DNA of 64,000 nucleotides, taken from the IMG/VR virus record IMGVR_UViG_3300029305_005724, positions 32,001 to 96,000 of that record; one strand, 5' to 3'. Each line of letters opens with the position of its first letter. Position 1 is the stretch's first letter. Positions 12,436-56,450 of the stretch are shown here, piece by piece. Below the pieces are notes generated by a model. It was not told the origin of the DNA, ran no database searches, and was given only the letters and a program-made list of their open reading frames with translations. A program made the translations under genes and the position numbers. The DNA is from a virus (lineage: Duplodnaviria > Caudoviricetes).

Positions 12436-14682
12436 ATGGCAAATTTTAATCAAGTTGAAGATATAAAAAATTTAAATATCGAAAAATCTGATTATATGCT
12501 TGGTAAAGGATTGATGATGCCTTTTAATCCTACCAACTCTGGAAGCCGTAAAATAATGTATGGCTCTCAGGCAGAACAGAGATTAGGTATAACAAAACCG
12601 GACGTTCCTTATGTAGGAACTGGATATGAATCATTATTTGGACAGAACTCTTCGTCTTTCAATAAAGTAGAAGAAGATCTGGAAGTAATTGGTTGTGTAG
12701 CAAAATTTGAATGGTGTCCTATGCATCATTATTTTGTATTTGCAATTAATAGAGATAATGGAGGACTTAGAGTATTTGAAAGAAAAGAATATAAGCATAT
12801 TACTGAGAATTATGGTTATCTTCTTAATAATGATATGCTTGATGCTCTTGTCCCTGGAAATATGATTCCGAAAGGAACCGTTATTCAGAAAAGCAATGCT
12901 TTTGATGAATATGATAATAGAATGGATGGTAAGAATCTTCTCACATTGTATTCTTCTTGTGAAGAAACAATGGAAGATGCTATTGTCATCTCTGAGTCAG
13001 CATCAAAGAAGCTTTCATCTCCATTAATTAAGAAAGTGAGTATTATTGTTAATGATAATGATATTCCTCTTAATCTTTATGGAGATATTGAAAATTATAA
13101 AGTCTTCCCGGATATTGGAGAAGAAAGTGTAAATAGTATTTTATGTGGTTTCCGCAGAGAGAAGAAAGAGGAAGCACTGTTCTCACAATCATATGCAAGA
13201 CTTAGAGAGCTTTCGATCTCTGATGAAAAATACACAGTTGCTGGAAGAGTTGTAGATGTAGACGTATATTGCAACGCTCCTGAAAAGCTTGGAGAATACG
13301 AATACAATACGCAGTTTAAGAAATATTATGATAATAATTTAAGAATGGCTAATCAAATTATAGACATTCTTGATCCTTATATTGCAGAAGGTTGCGAAAT
13401 GGAGTATGATCTTCAAGTTCTATACTATAACTGCAAAGGAATACTTTCTGGAAAGCATTATTTCTCTGAAAGAGAGTTTTCGAATATTGTTATTAATGTA
13501 ACTTTAATTGAAGAAATTCCTGTATTAAGAGGTGATAAGCTTTCTAACCGTTATGGCGGTAAAGGTATTACAGCTAGAGTAAAGCCAGATGAATTAATGC
13601 CTAAAACATTAAGTGGAGAAACTGTTGATATTATTTTGAATATGTGTGGCGTTTATGGACGTGAAAATGCTGGACAGCTTTTTGAAATTACCGTCACATA
13701 TATTTGCATGAAAATAATTGAATTCATCAATCTTCAGGTTTTGGACATTGATCAGTGTATTGAGCTTTATTTAAATCTTCTTCGTATTGTATCACCTTCT
13801 ATGGCTGATTATACAGAAGAACAGTTCACTAAAATGACTGATGATGAATGCATAGCTTATATGGCAGGAATTTGTGCTACAGAAAAATGTATGTATCTTG
13901 CAATTGAGCCTATGAGTGAAGCAATGACACTTGATAAGGTCGAACAGCTTTATCAAGAATTTCCTTGGGCAAAAGCTGAACATATGCTGATGCCTATTAC
14001 AGATTCTGCTGGAGAGATTAAATATATTCCCTCTAGAAGGCCCTTAATTTATGGATACCAATATATCTATAGATTGAAGCAGTATGCAGAGGAGAAGTTT
14101 TCTGTAACTTCATTGTCTGCTACAAATATTCGTAATGAAAATAGTAAGAGCAAGAGTAGCAACAACTATAGAGCTCTATATTCTAGAACACCGATTCGTT
14201 TTGGCGATATGGAAACTGGAAACCTTATACACCTTGGAGCTGAACTTGTTGTTCAAATGCTTATGCTATATTCAACATCTCCTCATGCAAGACGTCTTGC
14301 TCAAGAGATGCTTACTGGCGATGCATTCAATATCGATGTTAAACTGGATGAGGAATCTAAGAATAGAAATGTTGAAATACTAAATGTTTATCTTAAAACA
14401 ATGGGATTAAAATTAGTATTCAGCAGAAAACCTAAACAGTACGAACAACCGATGTTGATTGAACCGATGTACTTCTATGATAATCCTCATAGACTTGTTG
14501 AAGGACTCATTCCGTTAAATAAAGATGAGAAATTTGATATGGAAGCTGAAGTTCTCAGACTTATTAAGGAAAAGAATCATGAACAATGGGCTATGGATAT
14601 CTATCCTATGGAGTTTACAAGAGAGCCTGGAGCTTATGAGAAAGAACTTGCTGCCAAAGAAGCAGCCAAGAAATCTGAATAA
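12436..14682 (+). CDS. RNA polymerase beta subunit, C-terminal half (probably non-virion RNAP)
   Basis: PFNPTNSGSR, EDAIVISES, GDKLSNRYGGKG, VDIILN, YIYRLKQ and RFGDME; early-type promoter. Confidence 0.92.
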   Translation: MANFNQVEDIKNLNIEKSDYMLGKGLMMPFNPTNSGSRKIMYGSQAEQRLGITKPDVPYVGTGYESLFGQNSSSFNKVEEDLEVIGCVAKFEWCPMHHYFVFAINRDNGGLRVFERKEYKHITENYGYLLNNDMLDALVPGNMIPKGTVIQKSNAFDEYDNRMDGKNLLTLYSSCEETMEDAIVISESASKKLSSPLIKKVSIIVNDNDIPLNLYGDIENYKVFPDIGEESVNSILCGFRREKKEEALFSQSYARLRELSISDEKYTVAGRVVDVDVYCNAPEKLGEYEYNTQFKKYYDNNLRMANQIIDILDPYIAEGCEMEYDLQVLYYNCKGILSGKHYFSEREFSNIVINVTLIEEIPVLRGDKLSNRYGGKGITARVKPDELMPKTLSGETVDIILNMCGVYGRENAGQLFEITVTYICMKIIEFINLQVLDIDQCIELYLNLLRIVSPSMADYTEEQFTKMTDDECIAYMAGICATEKCMYLAIEPMSEAMTLDKVEQLYQEFPWAKAEHMLMPITDSAGEIKYIPSRRPLIYGYQYIYRLKQYAEEKFSVTSLSATNIRNENSKSKSSNNYRALYSRTPIRFGDMETGNLIHLGAELVVQMLMLYSTSPHARRLAQEMLTGDAFNIDVKLDEESKNRNVEILNVYLKTMGLKLVFSRKPKQYEQPMLIEPMYFYDNPHRLVEGLIPLNKDEKFDMEAEVLRLIKEKNHEQWAMDIYPMEFTREPGAYEKELAAKEAAKKSE

Positions 14683-14791
14683 TAATGCTCAAAGCAATAA
14701 AGGCATAGTCATATTTGACTATGCCTTTATTTTTTATATTCTTTCTTAGTTATATAATATAATCTTGATAAAAAGAAAGGAGATAATTATT

Positions 14792-17086
14792 ATGTATGAA
14801 ATATTAAACAAAATACTGTCTAGACTATTGTCTGGAGATTTATCTGTATTAAATTCTGAAAATGTTATCATGGTAGCTGATCAGGCTATTGATTTGTTAA
14901 ACAAACCCGTTTGGGATGAGCATGATAAAATGTGTGCTAGTATTATTATTAGCATGAGTCAAATTGTTTATAACAATACTGATTGTTCTGTATTGTTTCT
15001 AGATGATGGAATCTATGATTTACTTCTAGAAAAATACAAAGAATATGATAAAAATTTCATGGTAGGCGCCCCAATAGTGCAATTTAATCAGCAAGGGGAA
15101 GCCGTTGTTGAAAAAGAGTTTATAGAGCCGATGGTTTTTGTTGAAAATCCTGATATTTTTGAGCAAAACTCATTTTATTTTGATGATATTAATAAAAGAC
15201 CTCCGCTGGATATAAACCTTATTAAAGACATTGATAGAAATTCTGGAAAAGTAATTTCTAAGAAAAATGTTAAGGTTCCTCATATGTACCCAAAGCTTGT
15301 AGGCTCTCTTGATAAGTGTAAATTTACACTTAATTGTGAAGCTATAGATAGAGGTGCATTTGAAGATGACAATGTTAAAGTCTTCGAAAGAGACTTTTTA
15401 GCAAAGCATTTGCAAATGGGTCTTATAGATATGACTACTCCATTTGAGCTTGTTGCAGAGCTTAAATACGATGGTGTATCTGTAGAGGCAGATGTCACAA
15501 ATAAAATTCTAAGTGCAAGATCTCGTGGAGACGTAAATGAAGATATAGCAGCGGATATGACAGAAATATTTGGCGGATATCAATTTCCTTATGCTCCTGA
15601 GATTCCTGAAACGGAAGCATTTGGAATGAAATTTGAAGCAATAATTAGCTATATTAACCTCGATAAGCTTGGAAGATTAAAGGGTAAATACTATAAAAAC
15701 AGCAGAAATGGTATTATTGGTCTTTTGGGATCTTCCGATGCTTATGACTATAGAGATTTAATTACACTTATTCCATTAGCAACTTCTATGGAAGATATCG
15801 ATAGAGTTACAGAAATAGAATTCTTAAATAAGTATTATCATTCTGGAGAATATCTAAGATATTCAGTGCTTAAAGGAAACTATACAAGTATTCTTTATCA
15901 AGTAAGAAAATTCGTAGAAGAAGCTGAAACTATGAGAAATATGCTTCCGTTTATGTATGATGGAGTAGTTATTTCTTATAGAGATCCTAAAATAATCAAG
16001 GCACTTGGTAGAGAAAATTCTATAAATAAATATAGTATGGCTATCAAGTTCAATCCTCTTGTTCGAGAAGCTGTATTCACAGGATATACTTACAGCATAG
16101 GACAAGATGGAACAGTAACCCCAATGATCCATTACACCCCAGTAGAATTTTATGGAACAATTCATACAAAATCTAGTGGTCATTCTTATAAAAGATTTAT
16201 AGATTTACAGCTTGCTATTGGGGATATAATTCAGGTAGAATACACGAATGACGTTATGCCATACGTGACAAAACCTGAAATTATGGCCAATTATAGAAAT
16301 GCGAATGAGCCAGAGTTATTTCCCGAGTTCTGTCCTTATTGTGGAACAGCACTTATTGTTAATGAGTCTGGTAAATCTGCAATTTGTCCTAATAAGCAAT
16401 GCCCGGAAAGAGTTATTGCTAAAATGGCAAATATGATGTCTAAGCTCAATCTCAAAGATTTTGGAGAGGAGACATTTAGATTTCTTGGGACTAAGAGCTT
16501 GAGTCAACTTCTTAATTACACTTATGAAGATATTAAAGAACTTGGTCCAGCTACTGCTGAAAAACTTCTTGAAAGAATAAATGAAGTTAAAACGACTCCA
16601 TTATATGATTATAAAATTATGGGATCTATCGGATTTACAGGAATAGCTGTAGAAACGTGGAAGAAGATTCTTAATGTAATTCCTTTAGTAGAAGTGGCAA
16701 CAGATTCAGATGAAGATCTTTATCTAAAGCTTAAATCTATTAAAGGAATTGGAGAAGTAACAGCAAAAATTATTGTTCATGAGAGGCATGATTTGGAGAG
16801 TGATATATCGGAAATTTTAAGACTACCTAGTTTAATGATTTCTTTTGGAGTTAAATCTGGAAAGATGATTAGATACACTGGTTGTCGTCCGACTGATGAA
16901 CTTACAAATTATTTAACCTCTAAAGGTTGTGATGCTAGAGCTGATGCAGGAGTTACAAAAGCTACAGATGTGCTTGTAGTTCCTTATAACGGATTCTCTA
17001 GTTCCAAAACATCAAAAGTTGGAGATAATACTATAATTGTGGATTATGCCGCTTTTAGTGCAGATCCTGATAAGTATATCTCTTGA
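14792..17086 (+). CDS. ligA: NAD-dependent DNA ligase
   Basis: DDGIYD (domain Ia), ELKYDG, SRGD, NSRN, DGVVI, AIKF, OB fold, C4 Zn finger (CPYC..CPNKQC), HhH (IKGIGE) and BRCT-like tail. Confidence 0.93.
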   Translation: MYEILNKILSRLLSGDLSVLNSENVIMVADQAIDLLNKPVWDEHDKMCASIIISMSQIVYNNTDCSVLFLDDGIYDLLLEKYKEYDKNFMVGAPIVQFNQQGEAVVEKEFIEPMVFVENPDIFEQNSFYFDDINKRPPLDINLIKDIDRNSGKVISKKNVKVPHMYPKLVGSLDKCKFTLNCEAIDRGAFEDDNVKVFERDFLAKHLQMGLIDMTTPFELVAELKYDGVSVEADVTNKILSARSRGDVNEDIAADMTEIFGGYQFPYAPEIPETEAFGMKFEAIISYINLDKLGRLKGKYYKNSRNGIIGLLGSSDAYDYRDLITLIPLATSMEDIDRVTEIEFLNKYYHSGEYLRYSVLKGNYTSILYQVRKFVEEAETMRNMLPFMYDGVVISYRDPKIIKALGRENSINKYSMAIKFNPLVREAVFTGYTYSIGQDGTVTPMIHYTPVEFYGTIHTKSSGHSYKRFIDLQLAIGDIIQVEYTNDVMPYVTKPEIMANYRNANEPELFPEFCPYCGTALIVNESGKSAICPNKQCPERVIAKMANMMSKLNLKDFGEETFRFLGTKSLSQLLNYTYEDIKELGPATAEKLLERINEVKTTPLYDYKIMGSIGFTGIAVETWKKILNVIPLVEVATDSDEDLYLKLKSIKGIGEVTAKIIVHERHDLESDISEILRLPSLMISFGVKSGKMIRYTGCRPTDELTNYLTSKGCDARADAGVTKATDVLVVPYNGFSSSKTSKVGDNTIIVDYAAFSADPDKYIS

Positions 17087-18623: not shown

Positions 18624-20402
18624 ATGCTTACTCAGAGAGAACTTGTTGCAAACTTTATCCGAGATAAGAGAGAGCCGTTTAATCCTCTCTTTTTCAAACG
18701 GGATGAAGATGAAATTGTTACTGAATTGATGAATGTTATTTATTCTTGTGAACGTGAGAATCAATACTTCACAATTAAAGTTGATTCGTATCGAGTCGTA
18801 GATAACTATGAAGAGATTAATAATATCCTTTATCATTATTACGAAGATCTTACGAAAAATAAATCAAAATCAAAGAAAAGGGACAATCAATATGCATTCA
18901 TAAATCTTAATGAATCCTGTATCAGACTTTTGATTGTTCGCTATTATATAAAAGATAGGAATGAAGAAGACTATCTCGACGTTCTTATCGCAATTCCAAG
19001 AGTTATTGATAAGTACTATTTCAAAATAAATGGAATTATGCGTTCCACATTATTTCAGATTGTTGATGGTAGTACCTATAACAATGGAACTTCAAATGCG
19101 AAAGTCCCTAGTATTACGCTAAAGATTATATTCATGGCAGTACGTGTTAGCAGATACTATAATACATTAAAGACAACAGAAGGTGAAGAGCTTAGAATGA
19201 CTTATTACCATTCTAGAATCTTTAATAAAGGTATTGCTGCTGCTAAATATATCTTTGCTAAATTCGGGTATTATGGAGGTCTAAATTTCCTTGGTCTTGA
19301 GGGATCTATCTATCTTACTAGAGAAGACCCGCATGATTCAGATATGTACACCTTCAAAGTGCATGAAAATGCATATATAAGCAGTCCTAAGTTTCTTGTA
19401 GATAGAAATGTAATGCTGCAATCTGTAATTGTAACCCTTTATAATAGTATTATTGAAGGAATTCCTTTTGAAACTCTATTTGATAATCTTTATTGGGTTA
19501 GAAATCTCGGTGCTGAATTTAGTGGTGGTGATGAACGACTTGTATCAGTATATGATGAAGAAGATGATACCACCCCTGATACTTTAGACAAAGGATATAG
19601 CATTCTTGACTCGTTTGAGTCCATTTATGATATCAGTACAAAACGTTCTATCAAACTTCCTGAAGAGGATAAAGAAACAACGTATCATGTACTAAGATGG
19701 ATTATGAGAGAATTTAATGCTCTTCGTCTTAAAGATAACCTTGATATTAGATGCAAAAAGATTCGTTTTGCTGAGTATATTGCATCTCTTTATGCATTTA
19801 AGATTGCAAGAGGTATTTATCGTGTTTCTGATATGAATAAGAAAGCTAGTATTCTTAGCATTCGTAAAGCTATTAGAACCGACCCTAATTATCTTCTTGT
19901 GGCAATTACCAAATCCAAAATGGTATCATATAGAAACATGGTTTCTGATCTTGATGCTATGCAGGCTCTTAAGTACACTTACAAAGGTGTATCTGGCCTT
20001 GGAGAAAATTCAAATAATTCTATTCCTGATATCTATCGTTCTATCCATCCTAGTCATATTGGTCGTGTAGATCTTGATGCATCTAGCGATGGAAATCCTG
20101 GTATTACAGGAACTCTTTGCCCCTATGCTCCAGTGTATGATGGATTCTTTGAAGACTATCATGAACCAAATGCATGGGCATCAGAGTTTATGGAAACTAT
20201 GGAAGAATATAAGAAAGCTCAAAATCTTAAAGATGCTTTGATCTTTGAAGAGAGAATTTTGGGTAAAGATAAGACGGAAGAGATAGAAGTGACGTCTGAA
20301 ATCATTGCCTCGATGCAACAAATTATTAAACCAATGATTTTTGCAGATCAAGGCGAAGAAATCAGTATGGAGGACGTGCTCTATGGCTCAAACAAAAATT
20401 AA
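18624..20402 (+). CDS. RNA polymerase beta subunit, N-terminal half
   Basis: IPR....YFKING (RpoB region A). RSIHPSHIGRVDLDASSDGNPGITGTL corresponds to [24 protein letters not shown]. Confidence 0.88.
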   Translation: MLTQRELVANFIRDKREPFNPLFFKRDEDEIVTELMNVIYSCERENQYFTIKVDSYRVVDNYEEINNILYHYYEDLTKNKSKSKKRDNQYAFINLNESCIRLLIVRYYIKDRNEEDYLDVLIAIPRVIDKYYFKINGIMRSTLFQIVDGSTYNNGTSNAKVPSITLKIIFMAVRVSRYYNTLKTTEGEELRMTYYHSRIFNKGIAAAKYIFAKFGYYGGLNFLGLEGSIYLTREDPHDSDMYTFKVHENAYISSPKFLVDRNVMLQSVIVTLYNSIIEGIPFETLFDNLYWVRNLGAEFSGGDERLVSVYDEEDDTTPDTLDKGYSILDSFESIYDISTKRSIKLPEEDKETTYHVLRWIMREFNALRLKDNLDIRCKKIRFAEYIASLYAFKIARGIYRVSDMNKKASILSIRKAIRTDPNYLLVAITKSKMVSYRNMVSDLDAMQALKYTYKGVSGLGENSNNSIPDIYRSIHPSHIGRVDLDASSDGNPGITGTLCPYAPVYDGFFEDYHEPNAWASEFMETMEEYKKAQNLKDALIFEERILGKDKTEEIEVTSEIIASMQQIIKPMIFADQGEEISMEDVLYGSNKN

Positions 20403-20618: not shown

Positions 20619-20960
20619 ATGCAGATTAAAGAACCGCTGATAGAACCAATGATTTATCACGGTCCAGGTGGCTGCCCAAAGTGCAGCGGACCAATTACTG
20701 TAGCTGATAGCGAACTTACTATCATGGACTTAAACCAAGATGGTGATCCTATTAGTTCAGAAACGACAATCCGCTGCATGGGTTGCTGCATGCACTGTGG
20801 CAACAAAATTCCTATGATGAGATTTAAAGGTTCCTATATTCCATATAGTGAATCTTCGAAAATCATCAGAACCATGGAATTCAAAGATGAAATGGCTCAG
20901 CGAATAGCTGAAATCAATAAAAATTCTAATGGCAAAAATCCATTTGCCATAGAATCGTAG
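20619..20960 (+). CDS. Zn-ribbon protein
   Basis: CPKC...CMHC; N-terminal LIEPMIY motif. Confidence 0.75.
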   Translation: MQIKEPLIEPMIYHGPGGCPKCSGPITVADSELTIMDLNQDGDPISSETTIRCMGCCMHCGNKIPMMRFKGSYIPYSESSKIIRTMEFKDEMAQRIAEINKNSNGKNPFAIES

Positions 20961-21605: not shown

Positions 21606-21610
21606 TAATT

Positions 21611-21943
21611 ATGGCATTCTCATTTGAACAAGAACCGCGCTCAAATCCGGAAGGGCTTATTGATCCTTTTATAATTACCGAGCGTTATGATATCTGCCCT
21701 AAATGCAGAGCTCAAAGAGTCGAACTTTATAGCTTCAATAATATACCTCAAAATTATAGCGATGCTGTTAATGCATATCTTAGAGGATATGAGGTAAATT
21801 ATAATAAATACGAAATTCATATGATGAAATGTAAATCATGTAATCATGAATTTGTAATAGATTGGACTATGGGGTTTCCAGTTCCATTGAAAAATAGCTA
21901 TAGAACAAATAGATTCTTTTCTGAATTTGTACGAGGGTACTAA
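21611..21943 (+). CDS. Zn-ribbon protein
   Basis: CPKC...CKSC; N-terminal LIDPFII motif; terminator at about 21946-21985. Confidence 0.75.
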   Translation: MAFSFEQEPRSNPEGLIDPFIITERYDICPKCRAQRVELYSFNNIPQNYSDAVNAYLRGYEVNYNKYEIHMMKCKSCNHEFVIDWTMGFPVPLKNSYRTNRFFSEFVRGY

Positions 21944-25252: not shown

Positions 25253-26212
25253 TTAATATTCATTAATCGGAACATTTCCACCTTCCATAACAAGAGGCCA
25301 AACTTGATTGATATTTCTATTTCTGGCAATACCAGCATGAATATCAATAGTAGTATCTTCAAGTAGGAATGCATCAGGCCTCGGATAGTTAGGAATGCTT
25401 GCCCCAGTACTTCTATCAATTACATCGAAATATCTTTGACCCGTGGCCTGGTTGTATTTAACAACAACCTGTATATTAGGATTCGATTCCATCCTCATTC
25501 TATTTTGTTCAGGGGTAAGTGCGGAACCACCTCCAATATTACTAGCAATCATTTCGACAGGAGCCACTCCAGGATTCTGTGAATTTACTCCGATAGTAAT
25601 ATCCTGAATAGAAGGAACGGCAGGGGTATAACTTCCAACAGGAGTGTTGACAAACGATGAATACATATCCATAATACGCATATCATCATTTTCATTTTGC
25701 TTATCAAGTTTAAGAGCTTTCATTCTATTAAGCTCAAGATTATGAGCCTGAGTAATTGTAGAATTAAGCTCTTTAATAGCAGAGATCTTTGTAGTAATAA
25801 GAGAGCTTGCTGATGCTGTAAGATTAGTAAGATACGTGAATTTATTCTTTAGTGTTTTACTAGAACGAACAGAATCAATATCCTGCTTAATTTCTGCATT
25901 AAGTTCATCTGCCTGAGCAATTGCTCCACGAATAAGAGCATTTGTTTCAGCATAAGATTTAGCATAATCAACTTCAACAACAGAAGTTGGTCCTTGAGGA
26001 GCTGGCTCGGAATCAACTCTTCCATCTATATTGAGTTTGGCTTTAACACGAGGATTAGACTTCTTTTTGTCATCTCCAGGCTTATTTCCTGAATCGATTT
26101 TTGAAGCATCATCACTATAGAAGAATCCGAAATCGACTCCTATTCCAGAGTCTTCTTTGTTTGCTGTCGTGTTGGTATCATTCATGATAAAGGGATCAAT
26201 TAATTGTCTCAT
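25253..26212 (-). CDS. Hypothetical protein with central coiled coil
   Basis: Start at MRQLIDPF after ggagg; N-terminal LIDPFIM motif. Confidence 0.8.
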   Translation of the reverse strand: MRQLIDPFIMNDTNTTANKEDSGIGVDFGFFYSDDASKIDSGNKPGDDKKKSNPRVKAKLNIDGRVDSEPAPQGPTSVVEVDYAKSYAETNALIRGAIAQADELNAEIKQDIDSVRSSKTLKNKFTYLTNLTASASSLITTKISAIKELNSTITQAHNLELNRMKALKLDKQNENDDMRIMDMYSSFVNTPVGSYTPAVPSIQDITIGVNSQNPGVAPVEMIASNIGGGSALTPEQNRMRMESNPNIQVVVKYNQATGQRYFDVIDRSTGASIPNYPRPDAFLLEDTTIDIHAGIARNRNINQVWPLVMEGGNVPINEY

Positions 26213-26727: not shown

Positions 26728-28680
26728 ATGATTAAAGGACGACAACCTGGAGATAATATTACCTTAATGAATACAATGTTCTTTAGGAGAATGGATCCAA
26801 AAGATGAGAAGTTTAAAGAATTCTTAGCTCTTATCTATAAGGATGCTGATACCGGAATAAAGTATATTGAGGAAAAAGTAGATCCTGATTATGAATATTA
26901 TATGATTAATCCTGATAAAAGGGTTGATTATAATAGATTATTTGTTTCGGCTGATGATGTAGAAGCCGTTCAAGTTCCTTATAAAGAACTTGAAAAAGAT
27001 ATTGCAAAACGTGTTGGTTGCCTTGATTATTTTTATGAAAATATTAAAAATGGTAACCGTACAGAAAATAGAAAAATACATCAGCACCCGGATGTATTTA
27101 ATAGTGATATGAATATTGAAGATCACTATAGATTTAGATTCGATAAAATGTATAAAAATGATACAGTTCCGATTACTAAATCTTTCTTCGATATTGAGGT
27201 TGATTCCATTAATATGGTAGGCGATTTCCCAGAGCCTGGAGAATGCCCAGTTAATGCCATCACATTAATACTGCAAGAACAGCAGCAGGTCTATACGTTC
27301 TTGCTTAGAAATAAGGCCAATCCTTTAATTGCAGAATTTGAAAATTCTGTATTAGACGGATCCATCTTTCCCGAACTTGAAGCATTTGTAGTAAATGCTG
27401 TAGGCGGACCGGAGATGGCTGCGAAATATAATATTAATTTCAAATATAACTTTCTTTTTTATGATGAAGACGATGAAATTAATCTCATCAAGGACTTATT
27501 TAATGCCTTAAACAATTTTAAACCAGACTTTGTATTGGCATGGAATATGGGATTCGACGTTCCATACCTTATTGCAAGATGCCAAAAGCTCGGATATGCT
27601 CCTGAAGATATTATGTGTCATCCTGATTTTAAGAATAAAATTGCACAATATTTTGTAGATGAAAGAATGAAAAGTGAATTCGCAGAACGTGGAGACTTTG
27701 CTTTAATCTCATCATATTCCGTATTCCTAGATCAGATGATACAATTCGCTTCTAGACGTAAAGGACAAAGTAGATTTATCTCATTTACACTTGACTTTAT
27801 TGGTGAAGCCGTAGCTAAAGTACGAAAACTTGATTATAAGCATATTACTACAAACATTGCTGAGCTTCCGTATAAAGATTATAAAACATTCGTGTTCTAT
27901 AATATTATCGATACCATTGTTCAGCATTGCATTGAATGTATGACTGGTGATATTGATTATGTATTTGGAAAGTCTCTTCTTAATAATACCAGATATTCTA
28001 AAACTCATAGACAAACTGTCTATTTGACAAATAGAGGTTGTAAAGAATTTAGAAAAGAAGGATTTATAATTGGAAACAATGTCAATAAGTTTAATCCGCC
28101 ACCGACCGAAAAATTCCCAGGTGCTTATGTAGCGGATCCTACTAAATTGGATAATACAAGTAGGCTTACTATATTTGGAAGATTCGTAGATCTGTTTAAT
28201 AATCTAGATGACTTCGACTATGCAAGCCTTTATCCATCTATTCTTCGTCAGTTTAATATAGCAGCTCACACCCAAATTGGAAAGCTCCTGTTGCCCAATA
28301 AGGTTCATGATAAAGAGAATCCTGCGAATAGAGATGACTGGAGTAGAGCTGGAGCATTTATGGAAGATATGCAGTCTCAGGTTTGGCTAGAGGTCGCTTC
28401 TAGATGGTTTAGCCTAGCAGACTATACTAAACTATATTTTGAAGTTATAGAGTTCTTTAGAGAAATGGCTGTAGCTTTAAATGGAGTTCAGAAGTATACT
28501 AAAGATGGATTAATCATTCCAATGATTGATGTAATTGATATAACGAAAAATAGACTATACGAGCCTATGATATTTAATGATAGTCGTAGAGTTATTGATG
28601 AGCGCTATGTAGCGTATGATATTCAAAGATGGGAGGCATGGAGAAATGCTGCAATTACAAATCCAAACCAGCACTACTAA
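26728..28680 (+). CDS. Split family-B DNA polymerase, N-terminal subunit (3'-5' exonuclease + motif A)
   Basis: ExoI FFDIEVD, ExoII AWNMGFDVPY, ExoIII YNIIDT, FPGAYV and motif A DFDYASLYPSI. Lacks motifs B and C. Confidence 0.92.
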   Translation: MIKGRQPGDNITLMNTMFFRRMDPKDEKFKEFLALIYKDADTGIKYIEEKVDPDYEYYMINPDKRVDYNRLFVSADDVEAVQVPYKELEKDIAKRVGCLDYFYENIKNGNRTENRKIHQHPDVFNSDMNIEDHYRFRFDKMYKNDTVPITKSFFDIEVDSINMVGDFPEPGECPVNAITLILQEQQQVYTFLLRNKANPLIAEFENSVLDGSIFPELEAFVVNAVGGPEMAAKYNINFKYNFLFYDEDDEINLIKDLFNALNNFKPDFVLAWNMGFDVPYLIARCQKLGYAPEDIMCHPDFKNKIAQYFVDERMKSEFAERGDFALISSYSVFLDQMIQFASRRKGQSRFISFTLDFIGEAVAKVRKLDYKHITTNIAELPYKDYKTFVFYNIIDTIVQHCIECMTGDIDYVFGKSLLNNTRYSKTHRQTVYLTNRGCKEFRKEGFIIGNNVNKFNPPPTEKFPGAYVADPTKLDNTSRLTIFGRFVDLFNNLDDFDYASLYPSILRQFNIAAHTQIGKLLLPNKVHDKENPANRDDWSRAGAFMEDMQSQVWLEVASRWFSLADYTKLYFEVIEFFREMAVALNGVQKYTKDGLIIPMIDVIDITKNRLYEPMIFNDSRRVIDERYVAYDIQRWEAWRNAAITNPNQHY

Positions 28681-28681
28681 T

Positions 28682-29443
28682 ATGATTCCCATTAAAGATT
28701 TTCAGTATATATGCGATCTAGCAAAATGCAGTAAATGCAATTTATTTGTATTGCTTAAAGCTACAAATAAACTTTATGGAGCTAATGATGATTGCTGTTG
28801 TATACATGAAATCGATGTACCATTCTTGGTAGATACTGATTTAATATTTAGAATGGATGAAGTAGATAAAGAACTATTAGCTTCTTATAAAAATTTCTTT
28901 GTCCCAGACAGATTCAATTGGGTCATTCTACCAGACTATTATTGGGAAATGTACGTTTCTGGAGATCTGGTGACTAAGTATATTGATGAAAGATATTTTA
29001 TCATAGATCGCACAACAGGTCTCCCGATTCAACAAATTCAGATGTTTAGAAGCAATCCTGAATTCGATTTATCCAAAGCTGCTATTTTAAGACAGTTGGA
29101 GGGATATTTGCTAAGAATAAAACAACTATCATATCCAGAGTTCTTTACAAATGTAGAGCAAGATCCTAAGATCAGACAAGCATTTGATAGTAAAGCGGCT
29201 ATGGGAAGATTCCTATGCAACTTTAAAAATGAGAATATTAATGTACTATTCTATTTCTACAAAGGAATGTTTTCGTTGGCTAAAGCAGACACATTAGATC
29301 TTGAAATTCGCACAGATTTATATAATAGAAACTGTTTTATGGCAACATTCAAACCTAAAAAGAAAAAGAACCCATTAACGTTTAATACGTATGGAGTAGC
29401 TTTTCAAGAGAAAATCCATTGTATGTATATTAATATGGCTTAA
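28682..29443 (+). CDS. Hypothetical protein, candidate sliding clamp (PCNA-like pattern)
   Basis: 253 aa, starts 1 nt after the polymerase stop; helix/strand pattern at both ends is reminiscent of PCNA. The gene is solid, the function speculative. Confidence 0.4.
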   Translation: MIPIKDFQYICDLAKCSKCNLFVLLKATNKLYGANDDCCCIHEIDVPFLVDTDLIFRMDEVDKELLASYKNFFVPDRFNWVILPDYYWEMYVSGDLVTKYIDERYFIIDRTTGLPIQQIQMFRSNPEFDLSKAAILRQLEGYLLRIKQLSYPEFFTNVEQDPKIRQAFDSKAAMGRFLCNFKNENINVLFYFYKGMFSLAKADTLDLEIRTDLYNRNCFMATFKPKKKKNPLTFNTYGVAFQEKIHCMYINMA

Positions 29444-46214: not shown

Positions 46215-48467
46215 TTATTCATCATCACAATCATCAGGAATTGAAGCAGAGGCTGTAACCTTATCAGGATCTTCAAAGAAGATCATAGGCTCATAGAATT
46301 CTCCAGGATTTGGCTTGAATTCTTCTTCCTTAGGCGGTTCTATTCCTTGAATTGCATACTGAGGTTTTTCCATAAAGAATAGATCCATAAATGATGAACC
46401 ATTCTTTTTGAAGGTTAGCGGATTATAAAGAAGTTTTCCTACTTTTTGATAGCTCATAGATACCGTGATACTAGGATTGCAAGTCAATGCTCTGTTGAGT
46501 GACAAAATCTCATAATTAGGATCATAGAGAAACCACTTCGGCTTCTTTAAAATATCCTCAGGATCTCTTAATTGATTGGACACAATAACTTCAATATGAG
46601 TTGAAGATATTCCTAAACCACCGTCATTAGCTGTCTCCAGAAGTGCTTGAAGAAGTTGGTGGATATCCATTCCTTTAATCGTACTATTTTTATTCAGTAG
46701 ATTATTCAAGTGATTAAGAGTCTTAGAAAGTTCATTATTCTCGATAGGAACAATAAACAATGTCATTTCTGCAAGTTCAGAAAAGTCTACATGAATACAT
46801 CCATCAATAGGCTCACCTTTCTTTCTAATAACAGAATTAAATTCATTAGAAATATAAAGCTTTGCTCCTTTGTCATTGGATATATGGAATGTTTCTCCAT
46901 TCTGAATTACATCAAATTCTGTAATATATTCATTATAAATAGAAGGTCCATCATCGTCATCTCCCCCGAGATCATCGTCTTCTTCGTTTTCAAGTTCAAT
47001 GAACTCCGGATCAAGAACGAAAGTACAATTCTTAGATTCGGCATCGGAATTAATACGAATCATGTTTCCTTCAACTTCAAAGAGCTCTGCAAATTTATCA
47101 ACCCAAACAAGTTTTTCAACAAATGTTTCAAGAAGATGCTTTGCAGAAAGAAGCTTCTGAGTAAGGCTAGATGACAATGTTTCACTAGCGATACGTCCTA
47201 CATTAACACCAAAATTAATTGCAGCATCATAAACTGTATATGCAAGATCCCCATAGCATTTATAACAAATACCTTGTCCTCTTGCTGCTGATGCACAAGT
47301 AATAGGCGAACGTAATAGAATTTCTTTACCGATAAGATGCTTATCTTTAGGAGTAATAAGCATTTCAACCCCATGAGGATCTAATCTATAATATCTATTA
47401 CGAAGCATTTTTAATGTTTTAGCGTCCTTAATAGTAATTCTGACAAAATTAGGACTGCAGCAATCATAGTTGGGATCAGGATTCAAAAACGAATCCATAT
47501 TATTCAAACCAAGAAGACGTGCAAAGTGTCCAGAAGAACCAACGTTATTATATTTAATAATTTGCGCTGTTCTACCTGTAGATGATTCAATGAAATAATC
47601 AATGGGATTTGCTACACCGCCATTGATAAATGAGTTATAAATCGGAACAGGGAAAATGCCTCCATGACCATCAGGCTTGCTTCCGATATTAATTGTAAAT
47701 TCTTTAAACTGCTTCGGGTTTATTCCTTCAGAAGCTCTACAAGCATCTGCAAGACAATGATCATAACCCAAATATTGTTTTGCATTTTTCATAATATCGA
47801 TTGCTCTGTTAGCGAATTTCATACCTTCTGCTTTAACATCTTCAATCGGTACATTATGAAGATCTGCATGCATACATTCATAGAATTCAGGGCATTTCTG
47901 CATAAGCAAAACATTATCTTCAAGATTAACTGTATTTGCCAAAAAGAGTGCAAATTCATCTATATCATGAATACGATGCAGCGTATCATCAATGATATTA
48001 TTAAGCTCTTTATTAGAGAATTTTTTGCGGCTAGTATCGATAAGAAATTTATCAATATAATCTTTAATTGTATCTTTCTTTATCTCATTTGCAAAGAATA
48101 CATGCTTTGATTCTACAGGAACCCCTGTCTGAATTAGCATATCCCACATAATAAGATTTAACAAATAATCTGGAACCATCAAATCCAAAACTTTCTTATC
48201 ATAAAAATTTACGACAATAAATGATTTTTGAATTAATTCTGTTTCGATTCCATCTCTAAGAAGATTTAAGACAGAATCATAATGACTCTGCCAGTTTGCT
48301 TTTGTAATGTCTTTTGTTTTGACAAAGACTTGCTCACCATTAACTAATGGGGCATAAATACCATAATTTTCTGGGTGGCCTAATGCGGATGAGCCACAAT
48401 CCTGAACGAAATAACCCTGCTCAAGGCGCATTCGTTCAATTTTTTCGTTGATTGTTTGTTTTGCCAT
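46215..48467 (-). CDS. RNA polymerase beta' subunit, C-terminal half (probably non-virion RNAP)
   Basis: Bridge helix YFIESSTGRTAQ...SSGHFARLL, LRSPITC...GICYKCYG, trigger loop GVNVGRIASE.LS..LTQKLLSAKH; early promoter at 48545-58. Exact start codon (48467 or 48473) uncertain. Confidence 0.92.
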   Translation of the reverse strand: MAKQTINEKIERMRLEQGYFVQDCGSSALGHPENYGIYAPLVNGEQVFVKTKDITKANWQSHYDSVLNLLRDGIETELIQKSFIVVNFYDKKVLDLMVPDYLLNLIMWDMLIQTGVPVESKHVFFANEIKKDTIKDYIDKFLIDTSRKKFSNKELNNIIDDTLHRIHDIDEFALFLANTVNLEDNVLLMQKCPEFYECMHADLHNVPIEDVKAEGMKFANRAIDIMKNAKQYLGYDHCLADACRASEGINPKQFKEFTINIGSKPDGHGGIFPVPIYNSFINGGVANPIDYFIESSTGRTAQIIKYNNVGSSGHFARLLGLNNMDSFLNPDPNYDCCSPNFVRITIKDAKTLKMLRNRYYRLDPHGVEMLITPKDKHLIGKEILLRSPITCASAARGQGICYKCYGDLAYTVYDAAINFGVNVGRIASETLSSSLTQKLLSAKHLLETFVEKLVWVDKFAELFEVEGNMIRINSDAESKNCTFVLDPEFIELENEEDDDLGGDDDDGPSIYNEYITEFDVIQNGETFHISNDKGAKLYISNEFNSVIRKKGEPIDGCIHVDFSELAEMTLFIVPIENNELSKTLNHLNNLLNKNSTIKGMDIHQLLQALLETANDGGLGISSTHIEVIVSNQLRDPEDILKKPKWFLYDPNYEILSLNRALTCNPSITVSMSYQKVGKLLYNPLTFKKNGSSFMDLFFMEKPQYAIQGIEPPKEEEFKPNPGEFYEPMIFFEDPDKVTASASIPDDCDDE

Positions 48468-49685: not shown

Positions 49686-51787
49686 AAGATAATATGCGAA
49701 CTTCATTAGCAAGATATCCAGAAAGTGATATCTTGTATAATTATAAGAAAGTAGCAATGGAAATGCTACATTTTAATTTTCCGTCATTGAGTGAGGTTGA
49801 GTTAGCAGCGGCTGTTGATAACTCTATTTCTAAGCATTTTAAAGATACTGCCGTTCAGATTGATAATAATTATAAAAAGAAAACAATTGATATGACATTA
49901 AGAGGTCTTGCAGATTATATAATCTCAAGAGAACCAATTATAACCTCTTATGGAGTTCTATTTAACAGACACGGTGTATTGCCGAATCCTATATATACAA
50001 TGGTCGATGGATTTATTAATGACCGTAAGAAAATGAAAAAAGAAATGTTTAAGTATCCGAAAGGATCTGAAGATTTCGAGAAATACAATTTGCTTCAGTT
50101 ACTTTTGAAGATAGACAGTAATGGATTCTATGGCGCCACAGGCCAGTATAGTTGTATATATTATAACCTCTATACTGCATCTAGTGTAACAACTCAAGGA
50201 AGATCTTGTAACTCTGCAGCTGCTCTATTCTTTGAAAGCTTCTTAAATAATAATGTTCCTCATGCATCTATGAATGAGCTTATTACATTCATTCATAATG
50301 TGCTTAATGAGAAGCATCATTATAACAGCAATGATATTATTACCAACCATGCAACTCTTGATGAAACATTCTTCCAGTTAATGTCCACTACTGGATTCGG
50401 ATGGGTACCTTCGTATGATGAGATGTATATCGTTTGGGATATTCTTGCTAAATTAAATCAAGATGAATTAGATAGGCTTTTCTACAAGAATAATCTATTC
50501 CACTTTATCGATAATATTCCAGTAAAACAGTCTATTTTGTTTATTCTTCAGCAATTATCTGCTCCCTTCATGGATCCGAATGAGCCGCCAGAGGAAATTC
50601 AAGAAGCACTTGATGAATTTTTGGCAGTTGTTCAAGAGTATGTTTATTATGATAAACAAATTACAGATCGTATTGAGAAGATGGCATCCCTAGTTCGTTC
50701 CGTATCTATTATTCAAGACACAGACTCTGCTATCATTAGCCTTGATGGTTGGTATCAGTATGTAAGACAATTATGTGTCGGTGTGCCGATGAATATTAAG
50801 AATGAAGTTGTTGATGCTCTTGAATTTATTGAAAGCGGAGAAGTTAAAACATCTGAATCTAAACAAAAGATTATGGACTATAGCTTCTTAGACGATGATA
50901 TGATTGAAATGGATAGACTGATAGATCCTATGGTTATCACACCTCAGGATGGACTCAGATACTCTATTATCAATATTCTGGCATACTGTATTGGTAAGCT
51001 TGTCAATGATTATATGGAAAAGTATGCAAGAAATGCTCATAGTGATAATGAACGTCCTTGCCTACTTGTTCTCAAGAACGAATTCCTATTTAAGCGTGTT
51101 CTTATTACAGATGCTAAAAAGCACTATGCATCAAAGATGGAACTTCAGGAAGGAAATATTATTCCTGAAGATAAATCCCTTGATATTAAGGGCATGGATG
51201 CATTTGTTAAATCCAGTACTAATAATGCAATTAAAGAAAGATTGAAAAAGATTCTTTATGATGATATTCTTAATTCAGAATCTATAGATCAGATTAGGGT
51301 TTTAAAGGATATAGCTATCGTTGAAAAAGAAATCTTTGATTCTATCAATAATGGCGAAAAGAGATTCTTTAAACCTGTAAAGGTAAAGTCTCTTTCTTCT
51401 TATGAAAATCCTATGCGTATTCAGGGTATTGTAGCTTCCTATGCATATAATGCATTGCATGAACCTGGAACTGAAGCATTGGATATGAGCATAAGAAATT
51501 CTGTTGATATCGCAAAAGTTGATATTAATATGAAAAATATCGATCGTATTAGAGAGTCATTTCCTTATGTATATGAGAAGGCTATACAACTTATGAAGAC
51601 AAAGGAATTTTCTACAGGAATATCTTCTATAGCTATTCCTTCTAACGAGCCTGTTCCTGGATGGATTCTGCCATTTATTGAATACGCTCCCATTATTAAG
51701 GACAATGTATCAGGATTCCCGATTGAGTCTATAGGGCTATTTAGAGGTCCAGATACAAATAATTCTACTAATATAATTAAATTTTAA
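49682..51787 (+). CDS. Split family-B DNA polymerase, C-terminal subunit (fingers/palm/thumb)
   Basis: Motif B Q...KIDSNGFYG, SVTTQGR, motif C IQDTDS, LKNE, KKHY and DIKG. Confidence 0.92.
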   Translation: MKDNMRTSLARYPESDILYNYKKVAMEMLHFNFPSLSEVELAAAVDNSISKHFKDTAVQIDNNYKKKTIDMTLRGLADYIISREPIITSYGVLFNRHGVLPNPIYTMVDGFINDRKKMKKEMFKYPKGSEDFEKYNLLQLLLKIDSNGFYGATGQYSCIYYNLYTASSVTTQGRSCNSAAALFFESFLNNNVPHASMNELITFIHNVLNEKHHYNSNDIITNHATLDETFFQLMSTTGFGWVPSYDEMYIVWDILAKLNQDELDRLFYKNNLFHFIDNIPVKQSILFILQQLSAPFMDPNEPPEEIQEALDEFLAVVQEYVYYDKQITDRIEKMASLVRSVSIIQDTDSAIISLDGWYQYVRQLCVGVPMNIKNEVVDALEFIESGEVKTSESKQKIMDYSFLDDDMIEMDRLIDPMVITPQDGLRYSIINILAYCIGKLVNDYMEKYARNAHSDNERPCLLVLKNEFLFKRVLITDAKKHYASKMELQEGNIIPEDKSLDIKGMDAFVKSSTNNAIKERLKKILYDDILNSESIDQIRVLKDIAIVEKEIFDSINNGEKRFFKPVKVKSLSSYENPMRIQGIVASYAYNALHEPGTEALDMSIRNSVDIAKVDINMKNIDRIRESFPYVYEKAIQLMKTKEFSTGISSIAIPSNEPVPGWILPFIEYAPIIKDNVSGFPIESIGLFRGPDTNNSTNIIKF

Positions 51788-52124: not shown

Positions 52125-52457
52125 ATGGCACACGACAATACCGGCAGCAATTTTGCAGCAGAAGAGGATCTTATGAATAAAGAGTTCAGAAAGAATAACC
52201 TCAACAACATCAACAAAAAAGAGTTTGAAAAGGATATCAATCCGGAAAATCCTGCAAGCGAAATCAATAAGAAAAATGAAGAGCTTATTGATCCCATGGC
52301 TTGCGAAGCAAGTCCTGAAGAGCTCGAAGCTAAAAAGAAGAAATGGATGGACATCTTCCAAAGATGCCCTGATTTCGCAAATTGGATTCTTGAAATCTAT
52401 GAAGGAGTCGGATCTGCCGGCCTTGATGATATCATGAATGCATATTTCCATAACTAA
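52125..52457 (+). CDS. Small acidic hypothetical protein
   Basis: RBS aaggag; LIDPM motif; terminator at about 52475-52509. Confidence 0.75.
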   Translation: MAHDNTGSNFAAEEDLMNKEFRKNNLNNINKKEFEKDINPENPASEINKKNEELIDPMACEASPEELEAKKKKWMDIFQRCPDFANWILEIYEGVGSAGLDDIMNAYFHN

Positions 52458-52568: not shown

Positions 52569-54104
52569 ATGAATAAAATCGTTGTTTATCGAACTCATAT
52601 AGAAATAAACAATTATAGAAGAGGGGATTGCCCTCAATTAGAAAAAACATTCTCTGTTTATGATAGACTTTATCATAGACGATTTCCGAAAGGAATGATA
52701 TATGATGAAGAGAGAGGAGTACTCATGCTCCCTAGAGGTATTGATATCGGATATGTAGAAAGGCTTCTACAGTCCGAACCTGTTGTTGATGGAACTATAG
52801 ATCCAATAGGAGATGTGGGTCCAATTATGCTTAAATATAAACCTAGAGATACTACACAACAAGAAGCTATAAGATTTATGCTTAGTATGGATAAATATAA
52901 AAGAAATGAAAATAGCACAATGCTGTCAGTAAACTTAAATACTGGTAAAGGTAAAACATATTGTGCTATTGCAACTGCTGCATATCTGGGATATAGATCT
53001 ATAGTTATCACAGATAATATTGGTTGGTTAGAGCAGTGGAAAAATTTCTTTATTGAATACACAGATATTACAGCTGACGAGATCTATATGATTTCAGGAG
53101 CTCCTTCATTAATGAAGCTCTTTAATAGAGACATTTCAAAATATAAAGTTATTCTTTCAACTCATTCTACTATTAAGAGTATTGGAGATAAGCAAGGATG
53201 GGATAAGATTAGATCATTCTTCACTCATTGTCAGATAGGAATCAAATACTATGATGAGGCTCATTTGAATTTTGACAATATGTTTCAGATTGATTGTTAT
53301 TCAAATACATTTTTGACTTATTATTTAACAGCTACTCCTGGTAGAAGCGATGCCGGGGAAGATGCAATATTTAGTTTATATTTCAAAAATGTGCCGTCAA
53401 TCAATCTATTCAATATCGAATCAGATCCGCATACGAAATATGCTGCAATTAGATTCAATTCTAATCCGACCCCAGTTAATGCAGCTAGCTGTAAAAATAA
53501 ATATGGATTAAACAGAATTGCATATACCGATTATCTAGTTAGAAATGATAATTTTCAGCAATTACTAATTATTTTGGTCAATATGGCAATTCGAAAACCT
53601 GGAAAACATTTGTTCTATATCGGAACTAATGAAGCAATTCTTTATGTAAGAGACTTAATATATCAGAATTTTCCAGAATTGATAGGACAGATAGGAATTT
53701 ATACAAGTATAATTCCTCCTGATAAAAAGCCTAGAGAACTTGAAAAGAAGATAATATTAAGTACGACTAAAAGTGCTGGAGCCGCAATGGATATAAAAGG
53801 TCTTGTAGAAACAGTTAATCTTGCAGAGCCTTTTAAATCCAAAGTTTTGGCTCAGCAAACTCTTGGTAGAACTAGAGCAGCAAATACACTATATAAAGAT
53901 ATTGTAGACACAGGATTCTATTATACAAAGAAATTCTATGATTTTAAGAAGCCTGTATTTAAAAAATATGCATCTGAATGCGTAGAAATTAATATGAATA
54001 AAGATGATATTGATAAACGAGTTCTGGGTATAATGGATAATAGAAGCAAAATGATTCAACCAATGGAATTTGCTGATAATCCATTTAAATCCGAAGAATC
54101 GTAA
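52569..54104 (+). CDS. Superfamily 2 helicase (UvsW-like)
   Basis: PRDTTQ, NTGKGKT, YYDEAH, LTATPGRSD and QTLGRTR. Confidence 0.9.
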   Translation: MNKIVVYRTHIEINNYRRGDCPQLEKTFSVYDRLYHRRFPKGMIYDEERGVLMLPRGIDIGYVERLLQSEPVVDGTIDPIGDVGPIMLKYKPRDTTQQEAIRFMLSMDKYKRNENSTMLSVNLNTGKGKTYCAIATAAYLGYRSIVITDNIGWLEQWKNFFIEYTDITADEIYMISGAPSLMKLFNRDISKYKVILSTHSTIKSIGDKQGWDKIRSFFTHCQIGIKYYDEAHLNFDNMFQIDCYSNTFLTYYLTATPGRSDAGEDAIFSLYFKNVPSINLFNIESDPHTKYAAIRFNSNPTPVNAASCKNKYGLNRIAYTDYLVRNDNFQQLLIILVNMAIRKPGKHLFYIGTNEAILYVRDLIYQNFPELIGQIGIYTSIIPPDKKPRELEKKIILSTTKSAGAAMDIKGLVETVNLAEPFKSKVLAQQTLGRTRAANTLYKDIVDTGFYYTKKFYDFKKPVFKKYASECVEINMNKDDIDKRVLGIMDNRSKMIQPMEFADNPFKSEES

Positions 54105-54193
54105 ATAAAGGATTCTTTAACGATATACTATAAAAGTGAATGAGAGAAGGAATAAATCCTTCTCTCATAATTTTTATAAGGAGGTACAGAATA

Positions 54194-55564: not shown

Positions 55565-55655
55565 TCATTGGGCATTTGCCGATCCCAGGTACCTTTTGGT
55601 ACCTGGGATTATTTTTTAATGCTTCGGCAACTTTTAAGTAACAGTTTTAAGGAGA

Positions 55656-56450
55656 ATGAAAATCATGCCGAATGAATTAATAGAACCAATGGAGTTCTTT
55701 AAAATAGATAAAGTTTCAGATGATGTTTATGCTATTGGTCCTAATGTCATTCTGAAGTTTAATGTATCTCTATCCAAAATGTCAAATGGAAAGAGATTTC
55801 ATTTTCATAAAGAATATGAATATCCGTCGAGAGGCGTTCCGGGCCTTTCGACTCTTGTAACTATAAAAAGAAGTTTTGACTATTATCTTTCGATAGAAAA
55901 TATGACAAAAGATAATAGTGGAAATAAATTATTTATAAGAATTGGTCCTCAAGAATATATGATATTTAAAAGAGGACTTGAAGAAGCTATTTCCTGGTTT
56001 ACTGATAATAAATATGCAAAACTATTTGCAAGAGATAGAGGTAAACTAATTCTGATGCCTCCAGTACCAGAATTTGTAATGCAAAATCTTCCAATGCAAA
56101 AGTATATACACATTCAGCCAATTATTATTGATAGAGGTATGGCCAATGATGATAAAGAACCCGGTATTAGATTAACACTGGGTGATAATTCGAATGTAAT
56201 TGACATTAATCTTGATAGATTGATGGGATTATACTATACAATTTCTTGCTTTAATATGTATCAAGCAGCTTTGATCATGGTCAACTATATTCAAAGACCT
56301 GAATTTGGTACAAATCGCTTTGTGATGGAGCCTTCACATCTAATGGGTCAAGAATCTGGCGTAAGGTATGGCTCATCTGGAATAGAAGGAAGATTTGTAA
56401 CTCCTCAAGGAAGTCCAGACAATATAAAAACCTTGGAAGGAGGACAATAA
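55656..56450 (+). CDS. Hypothetical protein, possible PC4/PUR-like ssDNA-binding fold
   Basis: Two strand-strand-helix units (YLSIEN..LFIRIGPQEYMIFKRGL and GIRLTL..VIDINLDRLMGL); N-terminal LIEPMEF. Confidence 0.55.
   Translation: MKIMPNELIEPMEFFKIDKVSDDVYAIGPNVILKFNVSLSKMSNGKRFHFHKEYEYPSRGVPGLSTLVTIKRSFDYYLSIENMTKDNSGNKLFIRIGPQEYMIFKRGLEEAISWFTDNKYAKLFARDRGKLILMPPVPEFVMQNLPMQKYIHIQPIIIDRGMANDDKEPGIRLTLGDNSNVIDINLDRLMGLYYTISCFNMYQAALIMVNYIQRPEFGTNRFVMEPSHLMGQESGVRYGSSGIEGRFVTPQGSPDNIKTLEGGQ

Follow-up and report, generated by a model that had tools for sequence, protein, structure and literature searches.

A peptide tag on non-virion proteins of an AR9-like jumbo phage is respelled in concert among its relatives

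We found that about 20 non-virion proteins of an uncultured, AR9-like jumbo phage carry a selected, protein-level tag of seven residues, of the form LIEPMxF, on flexible, lineage-specific extensions, and that its spelling shifts together in all tagged proteins of any one phage. The peptide most likely serves as a private address, directed at one viral partner, and all copies are very probably read by a single phage-encoded binding site. The window, that is, the whole stretch of DNA analysed, spans 64 kb (G000:32001-96000) of the 224-kb source genome (G000, ~90% complete); genome-wide, the tag totals 23 copies in 20 proteins. The phage has the split divergent PolB, divergent DnaB, and virion plus non-virion multisubunit RNA polymerases (RNAPs) of the AR9/phiKZ-like phages (group 1). 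Its closest named relatives are Bacillus phage AR9/PBS1, with which it shares the gene order around PolB-N and portal, a five-subunit non-virion RNAP, and PolB halves at 28-33% identity.

All 14 copies listed in a preliminary description of the window translate as claimed, in frame and on the coding strand, and are located in 12 window proteins (Table 1). Enrichment over a shuffled background, the check proposed there, is borne out: a strict pattern finds 16 copies in open reading frames (ORFs), as against a mean of 0.066 and a maximum of 2 in 500 per-protein shuffles, and 0 in reversed proteins. Across all six frames of the genome it matches only 17 times, and the 17th match is a genuine 60-codon ORF conserved in relatives. 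An unbiased word count of the proteome ranks I.PM.F first (10 proteins versus 0.26 expected). With a position weight matrix, the 22 training sites score at least 17 (leave-one-out 9.7-24.9) and stand well apart from the rest, and shuffled proteins yield about three sites above 9; the two next-best sites score 10.1, lie internally and do no better than shuffles, and were rejected as tags. Same-codon pairs at shared residues number 302 of 880, below the 371 of 880 predicted from codon usage, so, in line with the preliminary description, the copies are not a DNA repeat. An origin by chance, DNA-level repeat or gene conversion is already refuted by these in-frame-only matches (16 versus 0.07 by shuffle) and unshared synonymous codons, and we give it practically no credence, even though one DnaB tail (P0318) bears a longer stretch resembling the beta-C tail, so that tail copying can occur.

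Table 1. Tag copies and the candidate reader in the window (positions are those of the window)
Feature	Position	Strand	Remarks
Non-virion RNAP beta-C tail, copy 1	14455..14475	+	residues 674-680; gene 12436-14682
beta-C tail, middle copy, degenerate	14494..14514	+	P replaced by G; full copy in G001
beta-C tail, copy 3	14596..14616	+	residues 721-727
NAD-dependent DNA ligase	15119..15139	+	internal, residue 119, upstream of adenylation domain; gene 14765-17086
Non-virion RNAP beta-N tail, marginal	20322..20342	+	gene 18624-20402
Zn-ribbon protein 1 (113 aa)	20637..20657	+	N-terminal; gene 20619-20960
Zn-ribbon protein 2 (113 aa)	21656..21676	+	N-terminal; gene 21602-21943
324-aa unknown protein	26183..26203	-	N-terminal; gene 25253-26227
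PolB N-subunit, first tag	28510..28530	+	C-terminal tail, absent in AR9; gene 26728-28680
PolB N-subunit, second tag	28555..28575	+	C-terminal tail; gene 26728-28680
Clamp-fold protein (265 aa, predicted)	28646..29443	+	untagged, candidate reader; start overlaps PolB-N end
Non-virion RNAP beta'-C	46278..46298	-	C-terminal tail; gene 46215-48533
PolB C-subunit	50918..50938	+	internal, residue 413; gene 49682-51787
110-aa low-complexity protein	52284..52304	+	gene 52125-52457
SF2 helicase	54051..54071	+	C-terminal, tail absent in AR9; gene 52569-54104
264-aa protein	55677..55697	+	N-terminal; gene 55656-56450; weak Whirly-like lead; client

The consensus has a central proline, and copies occur at N-termini, at C-termini or in loops, with 17 of the 22 lying no more than 45 residues from a protein end (8.4 expected), in agreement with the claimed siting in terminal extensions or insertions. 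Most sit in tails without a counterpart in AR9, whose orthologues stop before them: the match of beta-C to AR9 7s00_C ends at residue 658, ahead of the tagged tail, and that of beta'-C to 7s00_D at residue 718 of 772. No enriched tag was found in the AR9 proteome.

Carriers include four of the five non-virion RNAP subunits (the sigma-like one among them), both PolB halves, DnaB, the SF2 helicase, ligase, an HNH nuclease and small proteins, some of only 60-110 aa; one 198-aa carrier, for which an atlas search gave no match, holds two tags. By functional class, 10 of 25 genes are tagged versus 0 of 24 virion or virion-RNAP genes (Fisher p = 6e-4), all virion-RNAP paralogues being untagged, and the absence from virion proteins and topoisomerase claimed in the preliminary description holds. 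Also untagged, though acting on DNA, are RecA, topoisomerase II, SbcC, RNase H, Dda helicase and beta'-N, as is thymidylate synthase. The tag marks genes of unknown function as members of the DNA machinery.

In relatives, to which the preliminary description had pointed, the copies are respelled together in G002, G004 and L048. In G002, 14 of 18 sites have isoleucine after the proline (binomial 3e-11 against an M-to-I background of 10%), and in G004, 9 of 11 have valine, often with tryptophan at position 2 (1e-8); in L048 the proline becomes glycine at four sites, and also in a DnaB assigned to L048 by equal length only. The dialects are M in G000, I in G002, V/W in G004 and G in L048. The ligase tag switches in both G002 and G004, and the PolB C-subunit copy in G004 and not in G002. 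At the beta-N site, most relatives have a fixed variant and G004 has an additional true tag just downstream; the copy translates as described but is only marginal as a tag in this phage. Just 4 of 10 homologues examined of the 324-aa protein have the tag, which has hence been gained or lost repeatedly. Partial matches put forward earlier in RecA, SbcC and the small beta' fragment do not change with dialect, and for that reason we rejected them as tags. Taken together, the enrichment, class split, added tails and concerted respelling strongly support the proposed phage-specific docking or address code on non-virion proteins of replication and transcription.

Because the respelling is concerted, we infer one shared, probably phage-encoded reader: as its site drifted, every client would be pulled toward the new optimum spelling. 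Some 20 unrelated genes tracking one site over a short evolutionary span would be a rare natural experiment in motif-receptor co-evolution. A host reader (beta clamp or protease adaptor), with spelling tracking the host, is very improbable: the consensus is unlike QL[SD]LF, and spelling differs among phages whose core proteins are 65-80% identical, presumably faster than conserved host pockets change. In its favour, Mu is reported to exploit the host beta clamp in late transcription (PMC12867686). Nor do we expect that tags pair mutually as short beta-strand stickers, driving co-assembly or condensation without a dedicated receptor. The peptide is hydrophobic and strand-like, and the beta-C model places two-residue strands at copies 1 and 3 (at pLDDT only ~50-60, with no strand partner identified), but a genome-wide switch at one position is hard to obtain without a single reader and the near-invariant proline disfavours regular strand pairing. 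Scarcely more probable is a phage folding or turnover adaptor, either a GroEL-like chaperonin or a protein passing early and middle proteins on to a protease. One mostly terminal copy per chain, the GroEL-like gene of the tagged phage and the respelling, compatible with any single phage reader, would suit it; carriers, however, are almost exclusively nucleic-acid-acting and not generally the large or early proteins, with thymidylate synthase, topoisomerase and RecA untagged, proteins as tiny as 60-110 aa are tagged, and AR9 has a chaperonin but no tags.

The preliminary description named two genes as possible hubs, one of which (55656-56450) is itself tagged and hence a client. The other has a predicted sliding-clamp fold, with its start at 28646 (265 aa) and not at 28682. 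Its AlphaFold2 model (pLDDT 92.7) retrieves clamps in all of the top 39 VIA rows and clamps or clamp-derived factors in all listed Foldseek PDB rows, with T4/RB69 gp45 as the best match (6drt_A; Z 9.1, rmsd 4.1, 188 residues), and we are confident of the fold on these structural grounds. The gene occupies the same position in L047-L052, in every contig examined overlaps the end of PolB-N that encodes the tagged tail, and of the genes shared with G004 has diverged the most (25% versus 44-62% for core enzymes). Pfam and PHROGs searches with the protein gave no match, and a profile comparison of the family with AR9 gp128 was not significant; AR9 has a syntenic 238-aa gene and lacks tags. The model seems to be without three strands of domain 2, including interface strands, on our reading of the DSSP string of a monomer model, and the protein is probably monomeric. 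For an AAA+ clamp loader of the gp44/62 or RFC type, PF00004 gave only weak P-loop matches, in the Dda helicase and RecA genes of this ~90% complete genome.

Given one phage-encoded reader, the clamp-fold protein is somewhat the favoured identity; that it reads the tag falls, overall, a little short of an even chance. Predicting its complex with beta-C residues 666-697 scored 0.09 against a mark of 0.32, which is evidence neither way, and in 19 paired genomes (14 joined by equal sequence length only) no clamp column tracks dialect better than RNAP-core columns (best 16/19 in both), a comparison of low power. If the clamp-fold protein is the reader, its place would be behind the split polymerase on double-stranded DNA, probably in monomeric form, as with Rhc or herpes UL42, and not as a loaded ring. 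Its outer face would grip the tag, bound there as a short extended strand, and this would bring polymerase, helicases, ligase, nucleases and late RNA polymerase together on replicating DNA. Late transcription would in that way be coupled to replication as it is in T4, where gp45 acts via the tails of gp43, ligase, gp33 and gp55. By analogy, this reading is favoured by a client set mirroring that of gp45 (polymerase, ligase, sigma-like late subunit) and by the RNase H-clamp Rhc (PhiKZ gp155, Goslar gp190; preprints, October 2026), whose clamp-derived domain is required in Goslar for replication and late transcription (10.64898/2026.10.01.755736). The PhiKZ Rhc clamp domain, on the other hand, which is without ring-forming elements, binds polymerase by a broad surface (~1,800 Å2) and not a peptide (10.64898/2026.09.30.755723), which by the same analogy would argue against a clamp reader. 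A monomer would also be a poor tool-belt for tails bearing two to five copies, and separate tags on subunits of one complex (four RNAP subunits, both PolB halves) would suit a per-chain address at least equally.

The main rival of the clamp reader is a compartment scaffold or gate, in which the tag addresses proteins chain by chain to an oligomeric scaffold, nucleoid protein or gate of a non-chimallin replication and transcription compartment, and its lineage-private spelling would also exclude proteins of co-infecting relatives. We regard this as unlikely, and as less likely still a nuclear-localisation-like address to a non-chimallin compartment, with the spelling as a self/non-self password that mobile homing endonucleases must adopt too. 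Every subunit of a complex having its own copy, the tandem arrays (of two or three copies in this phage and about five in G008) suited to a multivalent scaffold, the tags on mobile HNH nucleases and a 60-aa peptide, and several fast-evolving, untagged, conserved unknown genes as candidates, among them window 54140-55564 and G000 182871-184991, 24582-26003 and 102974-103798, all speak for a compartment; the DNA-acting proteins without tags speak against it. Chimallin, PicA and PhuZ gave no match in G000 with phrog_4795, phrog_3141 and PF00091, which very distant homologues could escape; phrog_4795 is also absent from G002 and G006 and was detected in phiKZ as positive control. With none of these genes detected, a PicA-gated nucleus of the chimallin type is not supported. 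Import into the chimallin nucleus by PicA/Imp1, moreover, has a comparable cargo list (helicase, ligase, non-virion RNAP subunits) but recognises folded surfaces, not terminal signals (PMC13282480).

AR9/phiKZ-like phages were long thought to be without a clamp; through a genome-wide peptide code, the organisation of their replication and its coupling to late transcription can be probed directly, using short synthetic peptides and exchanges among the natural dialects (M, I, V/W, G). In the literature on jumbo-phage short linear motifs and clamp-binding or docking motifs we found no account of this tag, and a word search of the Goslar paper gave no mention of a motif or PIP box (10.64898/2026.10.01.755736). 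The chimalliviruses with Rhc belong to the same broad phage group and share a split PolB and two multisubunit RNAPs. The clamp-fold model resembles the C-terminal, clamp-derived domain of Rhc, and its viral matches include the Noxifer and RP12 RNase H proteins (TMq 0.42 and 0.38, E ~0.005-0.01). Clamp and RNase H are separate genes here, however: phrog_3265 (RNase HI) matches only positions 85-187 of a separate 252-aa RNase H gene, no clamp relatives longer than 290 aa were found, and a profile-sequence comparison of the family with PhiKZ Rhc was not significant.

The T4/RB69 clamp gp45, with binding motifs on gp43, ligase, gp33 and gp55, is alike in that its polymerase, ligase and late-transcription clients carry, on flexible linkers, one short hydrophobic peptide with an aromatic end (PMC7892883), and here too the phage encodes a predicted DNA-clamp-fold protein, with polymerase, ligase and a sigma-like late subunit among the tagged proteins. 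The tag differs in its consensus, with a central proline, and in lying at N-termini, C-termini and loops instead of the extreme C-terminus as in T4; some 20 proteins would be its clients, among them helicases and RNAP subunits of the phage itself, and its spelling switches between close relatives, with no loader found and formation of a closed homotrimeric ring doubtful from the model. The PCNA PIP box and the bacterial beta-clamp motif are likewise short linear motifs in disordered segments, common to polymerase, ligase and nucleases, but they are stable across whole domains of life, whereas the present tag is lineage-private and fast-changing.

All 14 copies of the seven-residue, LIEPMxF-like tag listed in the preliminary description were found in frame where it had placed them, and its expected enrichment was borne out, with 16 occurrences of the strict pattern across the proteome versus 0.066 in shuffles and none in reversed proteins. 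An unbiased word count across the proteome also ranked the tag word first, and the full tally came to 23 copies in 20 proteins, including one small ORF that was initially missed. Synonymous codons differ between copies, so the signal resides in the protein and is not a DNA repeat, as had been proposed. Carriers beyond the window are DnaB, an HNH/NUMOD4 nuclease, an XRE-type HTH protein, an LPD28 protein, unknown proteins of 198 aa (two copies), 273 aa and 60 aa, and a 161-aa ORF that is exon 1 of a sigma-like fifth subunit of the non-virion RNA polymerase (AR9 gp226-like). The gene for this subunit is interrupted by a group I intron in the studied phage, with canonical R and S elements recognized by eye and a tRNA gene nested within it; the related genome G006 has no intron at this site.

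Comparing spellings across five related genomes and several contigs, we found that tag sites are kept while the spelling is fixed per genome. The residue after the proline is M in the studied phage, G001 and G006, but I at 14 of 18 sites in G002 (background M-to-I 10%; binomial 3e-11) and V at 9 of 11 sites in G004, frequently together with W at position 2 (1e-8). On a related contig, L048, the proline itself is replaced by G at four sites, and likewise in a DnaB tentatively paired with it. Each genome is enriched for its own dialect (22 versus 2.6 in G002; 13 versus 0.5 in G004), and a loose form of the pattern occurs in 61 of 74 distinct DnaB tails despite variable flanks. Single proteins gain and lose the tag among relatives, and the more distant G008 carries a different word, in about five copies in its beta-C tail. 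Joint change of a single position in twenty unrelated genes is what one common binding site predicts, and the comparison shows the tag to be selected and co-evolving. We infer that one phage-encoded reader very probably recognizes all copies; an adaptor for folding or turnover in that role is unlikely, tags acting as stickers for one another are slightly less likely still, and a reader supplied by the host is the most improbable.

The proposed restriction to replication and transcription enzymes held in part of that class: using classes that we assigned from PHROGs and AR9 annotation, the tag is present in 10 of 25 non-virion nucleic-acid proteins and absent from all 24 virion, packaging or virion-RNAP genes (Fisher p = 6e-4). 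The paralogous virion RNAP subunits, none of which is tagged, are an internal control for this distribution. RecA, both topoisomerase II subunits, SbcC, RNase H, Dda helicase, RusA and beta'-N also lack the tag, which is thus confined to a subset of non-virion proteins. Partial matches in RecA, SbcC and the small beta' fragment were rejected as tags, their spelling being independent of dialect. Terminal placement was likewise upheld (17 of 22 copies within 45 residues of a protein end, versus 8.4 expected); since, in addition, the AR9 orthologues of beta-C, beta-N, beta'-C, PolB-N and the SF2 helicase end short of the tagged tails, and the beta-C tail has low confidence in the full-length structure model, most copies are add-ons rather than core. 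Internal copies occur in the ligase and PolB-C.

Several neighboring observations were made on these proteins. The C-terminus of the DnaB homologue P0318 has the tag followed by a helix, much like the beta-C tail module, and this likeness suggests a longer strand-plus-helix binding element or a tail copied between genes. The PolB genes are uninterrupted here; in G001, G002 and G004 they are several ORFs with HNH genes between. The C-terminal piece of virion RNAP beta, only 241 aa long, matches the C-terminal part of a 423-aa AR9 protein, so its split point appears to differ from that of AR9.

A split family-B polymerase, a divergent DnaB and two multisubunit RNA polymerases group the phage with AR9/phiKZ-like jumbo phages. 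Among named phages, those nearest to it are AR9/PBS1 of Bacillus and jumbo phages of Staphylococcus, at ~28-33% identity. The window spans bases 32001-96000 of its contig, G000. Relatives with the record names XIEF21 and LIUQ22 point to samples from the ruminant gut. The contig ends are formed by an inverted repeat spanning the start of a 507-aa gene, and a gene on the opposite strand starts similarly; an invertible segment or an assembly artefact is possible.

Coordinates of features in the window, in other loci of the phage contig (L001, L003, L005, L010) and in an AR9 locus (L076)
Feature	Location	Remarks
Virion RNAP beta, C-terminal piece	window 6322-7047	241 aa
PolB genes	window 26728-28680, 49682-51787	
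Clamp-fold gene	window 28646-29443	265 aa; overlaps PolB-N end
Candidate nucleic-acid-binding protein	window 55656-56450	weak Whirly-like lead from features and structure; may bind single-strand nucleic acid in the manner of ChmC
End repeat	L001:26-152; final 127 bases of L010	127 bases, inverted
Gene with similar start	L001:4192-5724	opposite strand
GroEL-like chaperonin gene	L003:10550-12289	untagged
495-aa ORF	L005:17630-19117 (-) (G000 147630-149117)	start may resemble the reverse transcriptase of a diversity-generating retroelement; adjoined by 174-aa and 491-aa ORFs
Group I intron	L010:617-1265 (G000 about 209617-210265)	
tRNA gene in intron	L010:862-943	Rfam 58 bits
RNase H and 238-aa genes	L076:16727-18394	AR9, between PolB-N and portal

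If a single phage-encoded reader exists, the clamp-fold protein is somewhat favored to be it. Its predicted structure (pLDDT 92.7) matched DNA clamps or clamp-derived factors in all of the top 39 hits, the best being T4 gp45 (Z 9.1, rmsd 4.1, 188 residues); beyond these hits Z falls to 3.3. The gene, which carries no tag, sits at the same place in all contigs read and has diverged more than any other gene common to the studied phage and G004. Like T4 gp45, its product would bring polymerase, helicases, ligase, nucleases and late RNAP together on DNA that is being replicated. Against this reading, the modeled protein is probably not a ring, no AAA+ clamp loader was seen in the 223,865-base contig (~90% complete), control columns followed the dialect at least as well as any column of the clamp, and Rhc, the RNase H-clamp of chimalliviruses, works through a surface and not a peptide. 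Furthermore, a separate tag on each subunit of a single complex suits a per-chain address, as would fit the main rival, a reader that forms the scaffold or gate of a compartment built without chimallin, which we consider possible but doubtful; searches for chimallin, PicA and tubulin gave no hits.

In chimalliviruses, a clamp-derived domain is fused to RNase H as Rhc (10.64898/2026.09.30.755723, 10.64898/2026.10.01.755736). According to these October 2026 preprints, Rhc is monomeric, holds polymerase via a broad surface and DNA via a concave face, and stimulates the polymerase; late transcription of Goslar requires it (10.64898/2026.10.01.755736). The clamp-fold model matches the Noxifer and RP12 RNase H proteins by fold, but in the studied phage RNase H has a gene of its own and, lacking the fusion, the clamp-fold protein is not Rhc. 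The AR9 slot between PolB-N and portal holds a gene for RNase H alongside one for an unknown 238-aa protein, possibly two unfused Rhc halves; no similarity in sequence to the clamp family was found. Given the preprints, the fold matches and this slot, a clamp-like protein in the AR9/phiKZ-like group is no longer surprising. In T4, gp45 gathers replication and late-transcription clients on DNA (PMC7892883), and the tag system would work similarly; it differs in that its consensus is not that of T4 and that a ring and loader are doubtful for the clamp-fold protein. Our literature search found no publication describing the tag. The tag system is a real feature, and the surprise is a peptide code on possible clamp clients.
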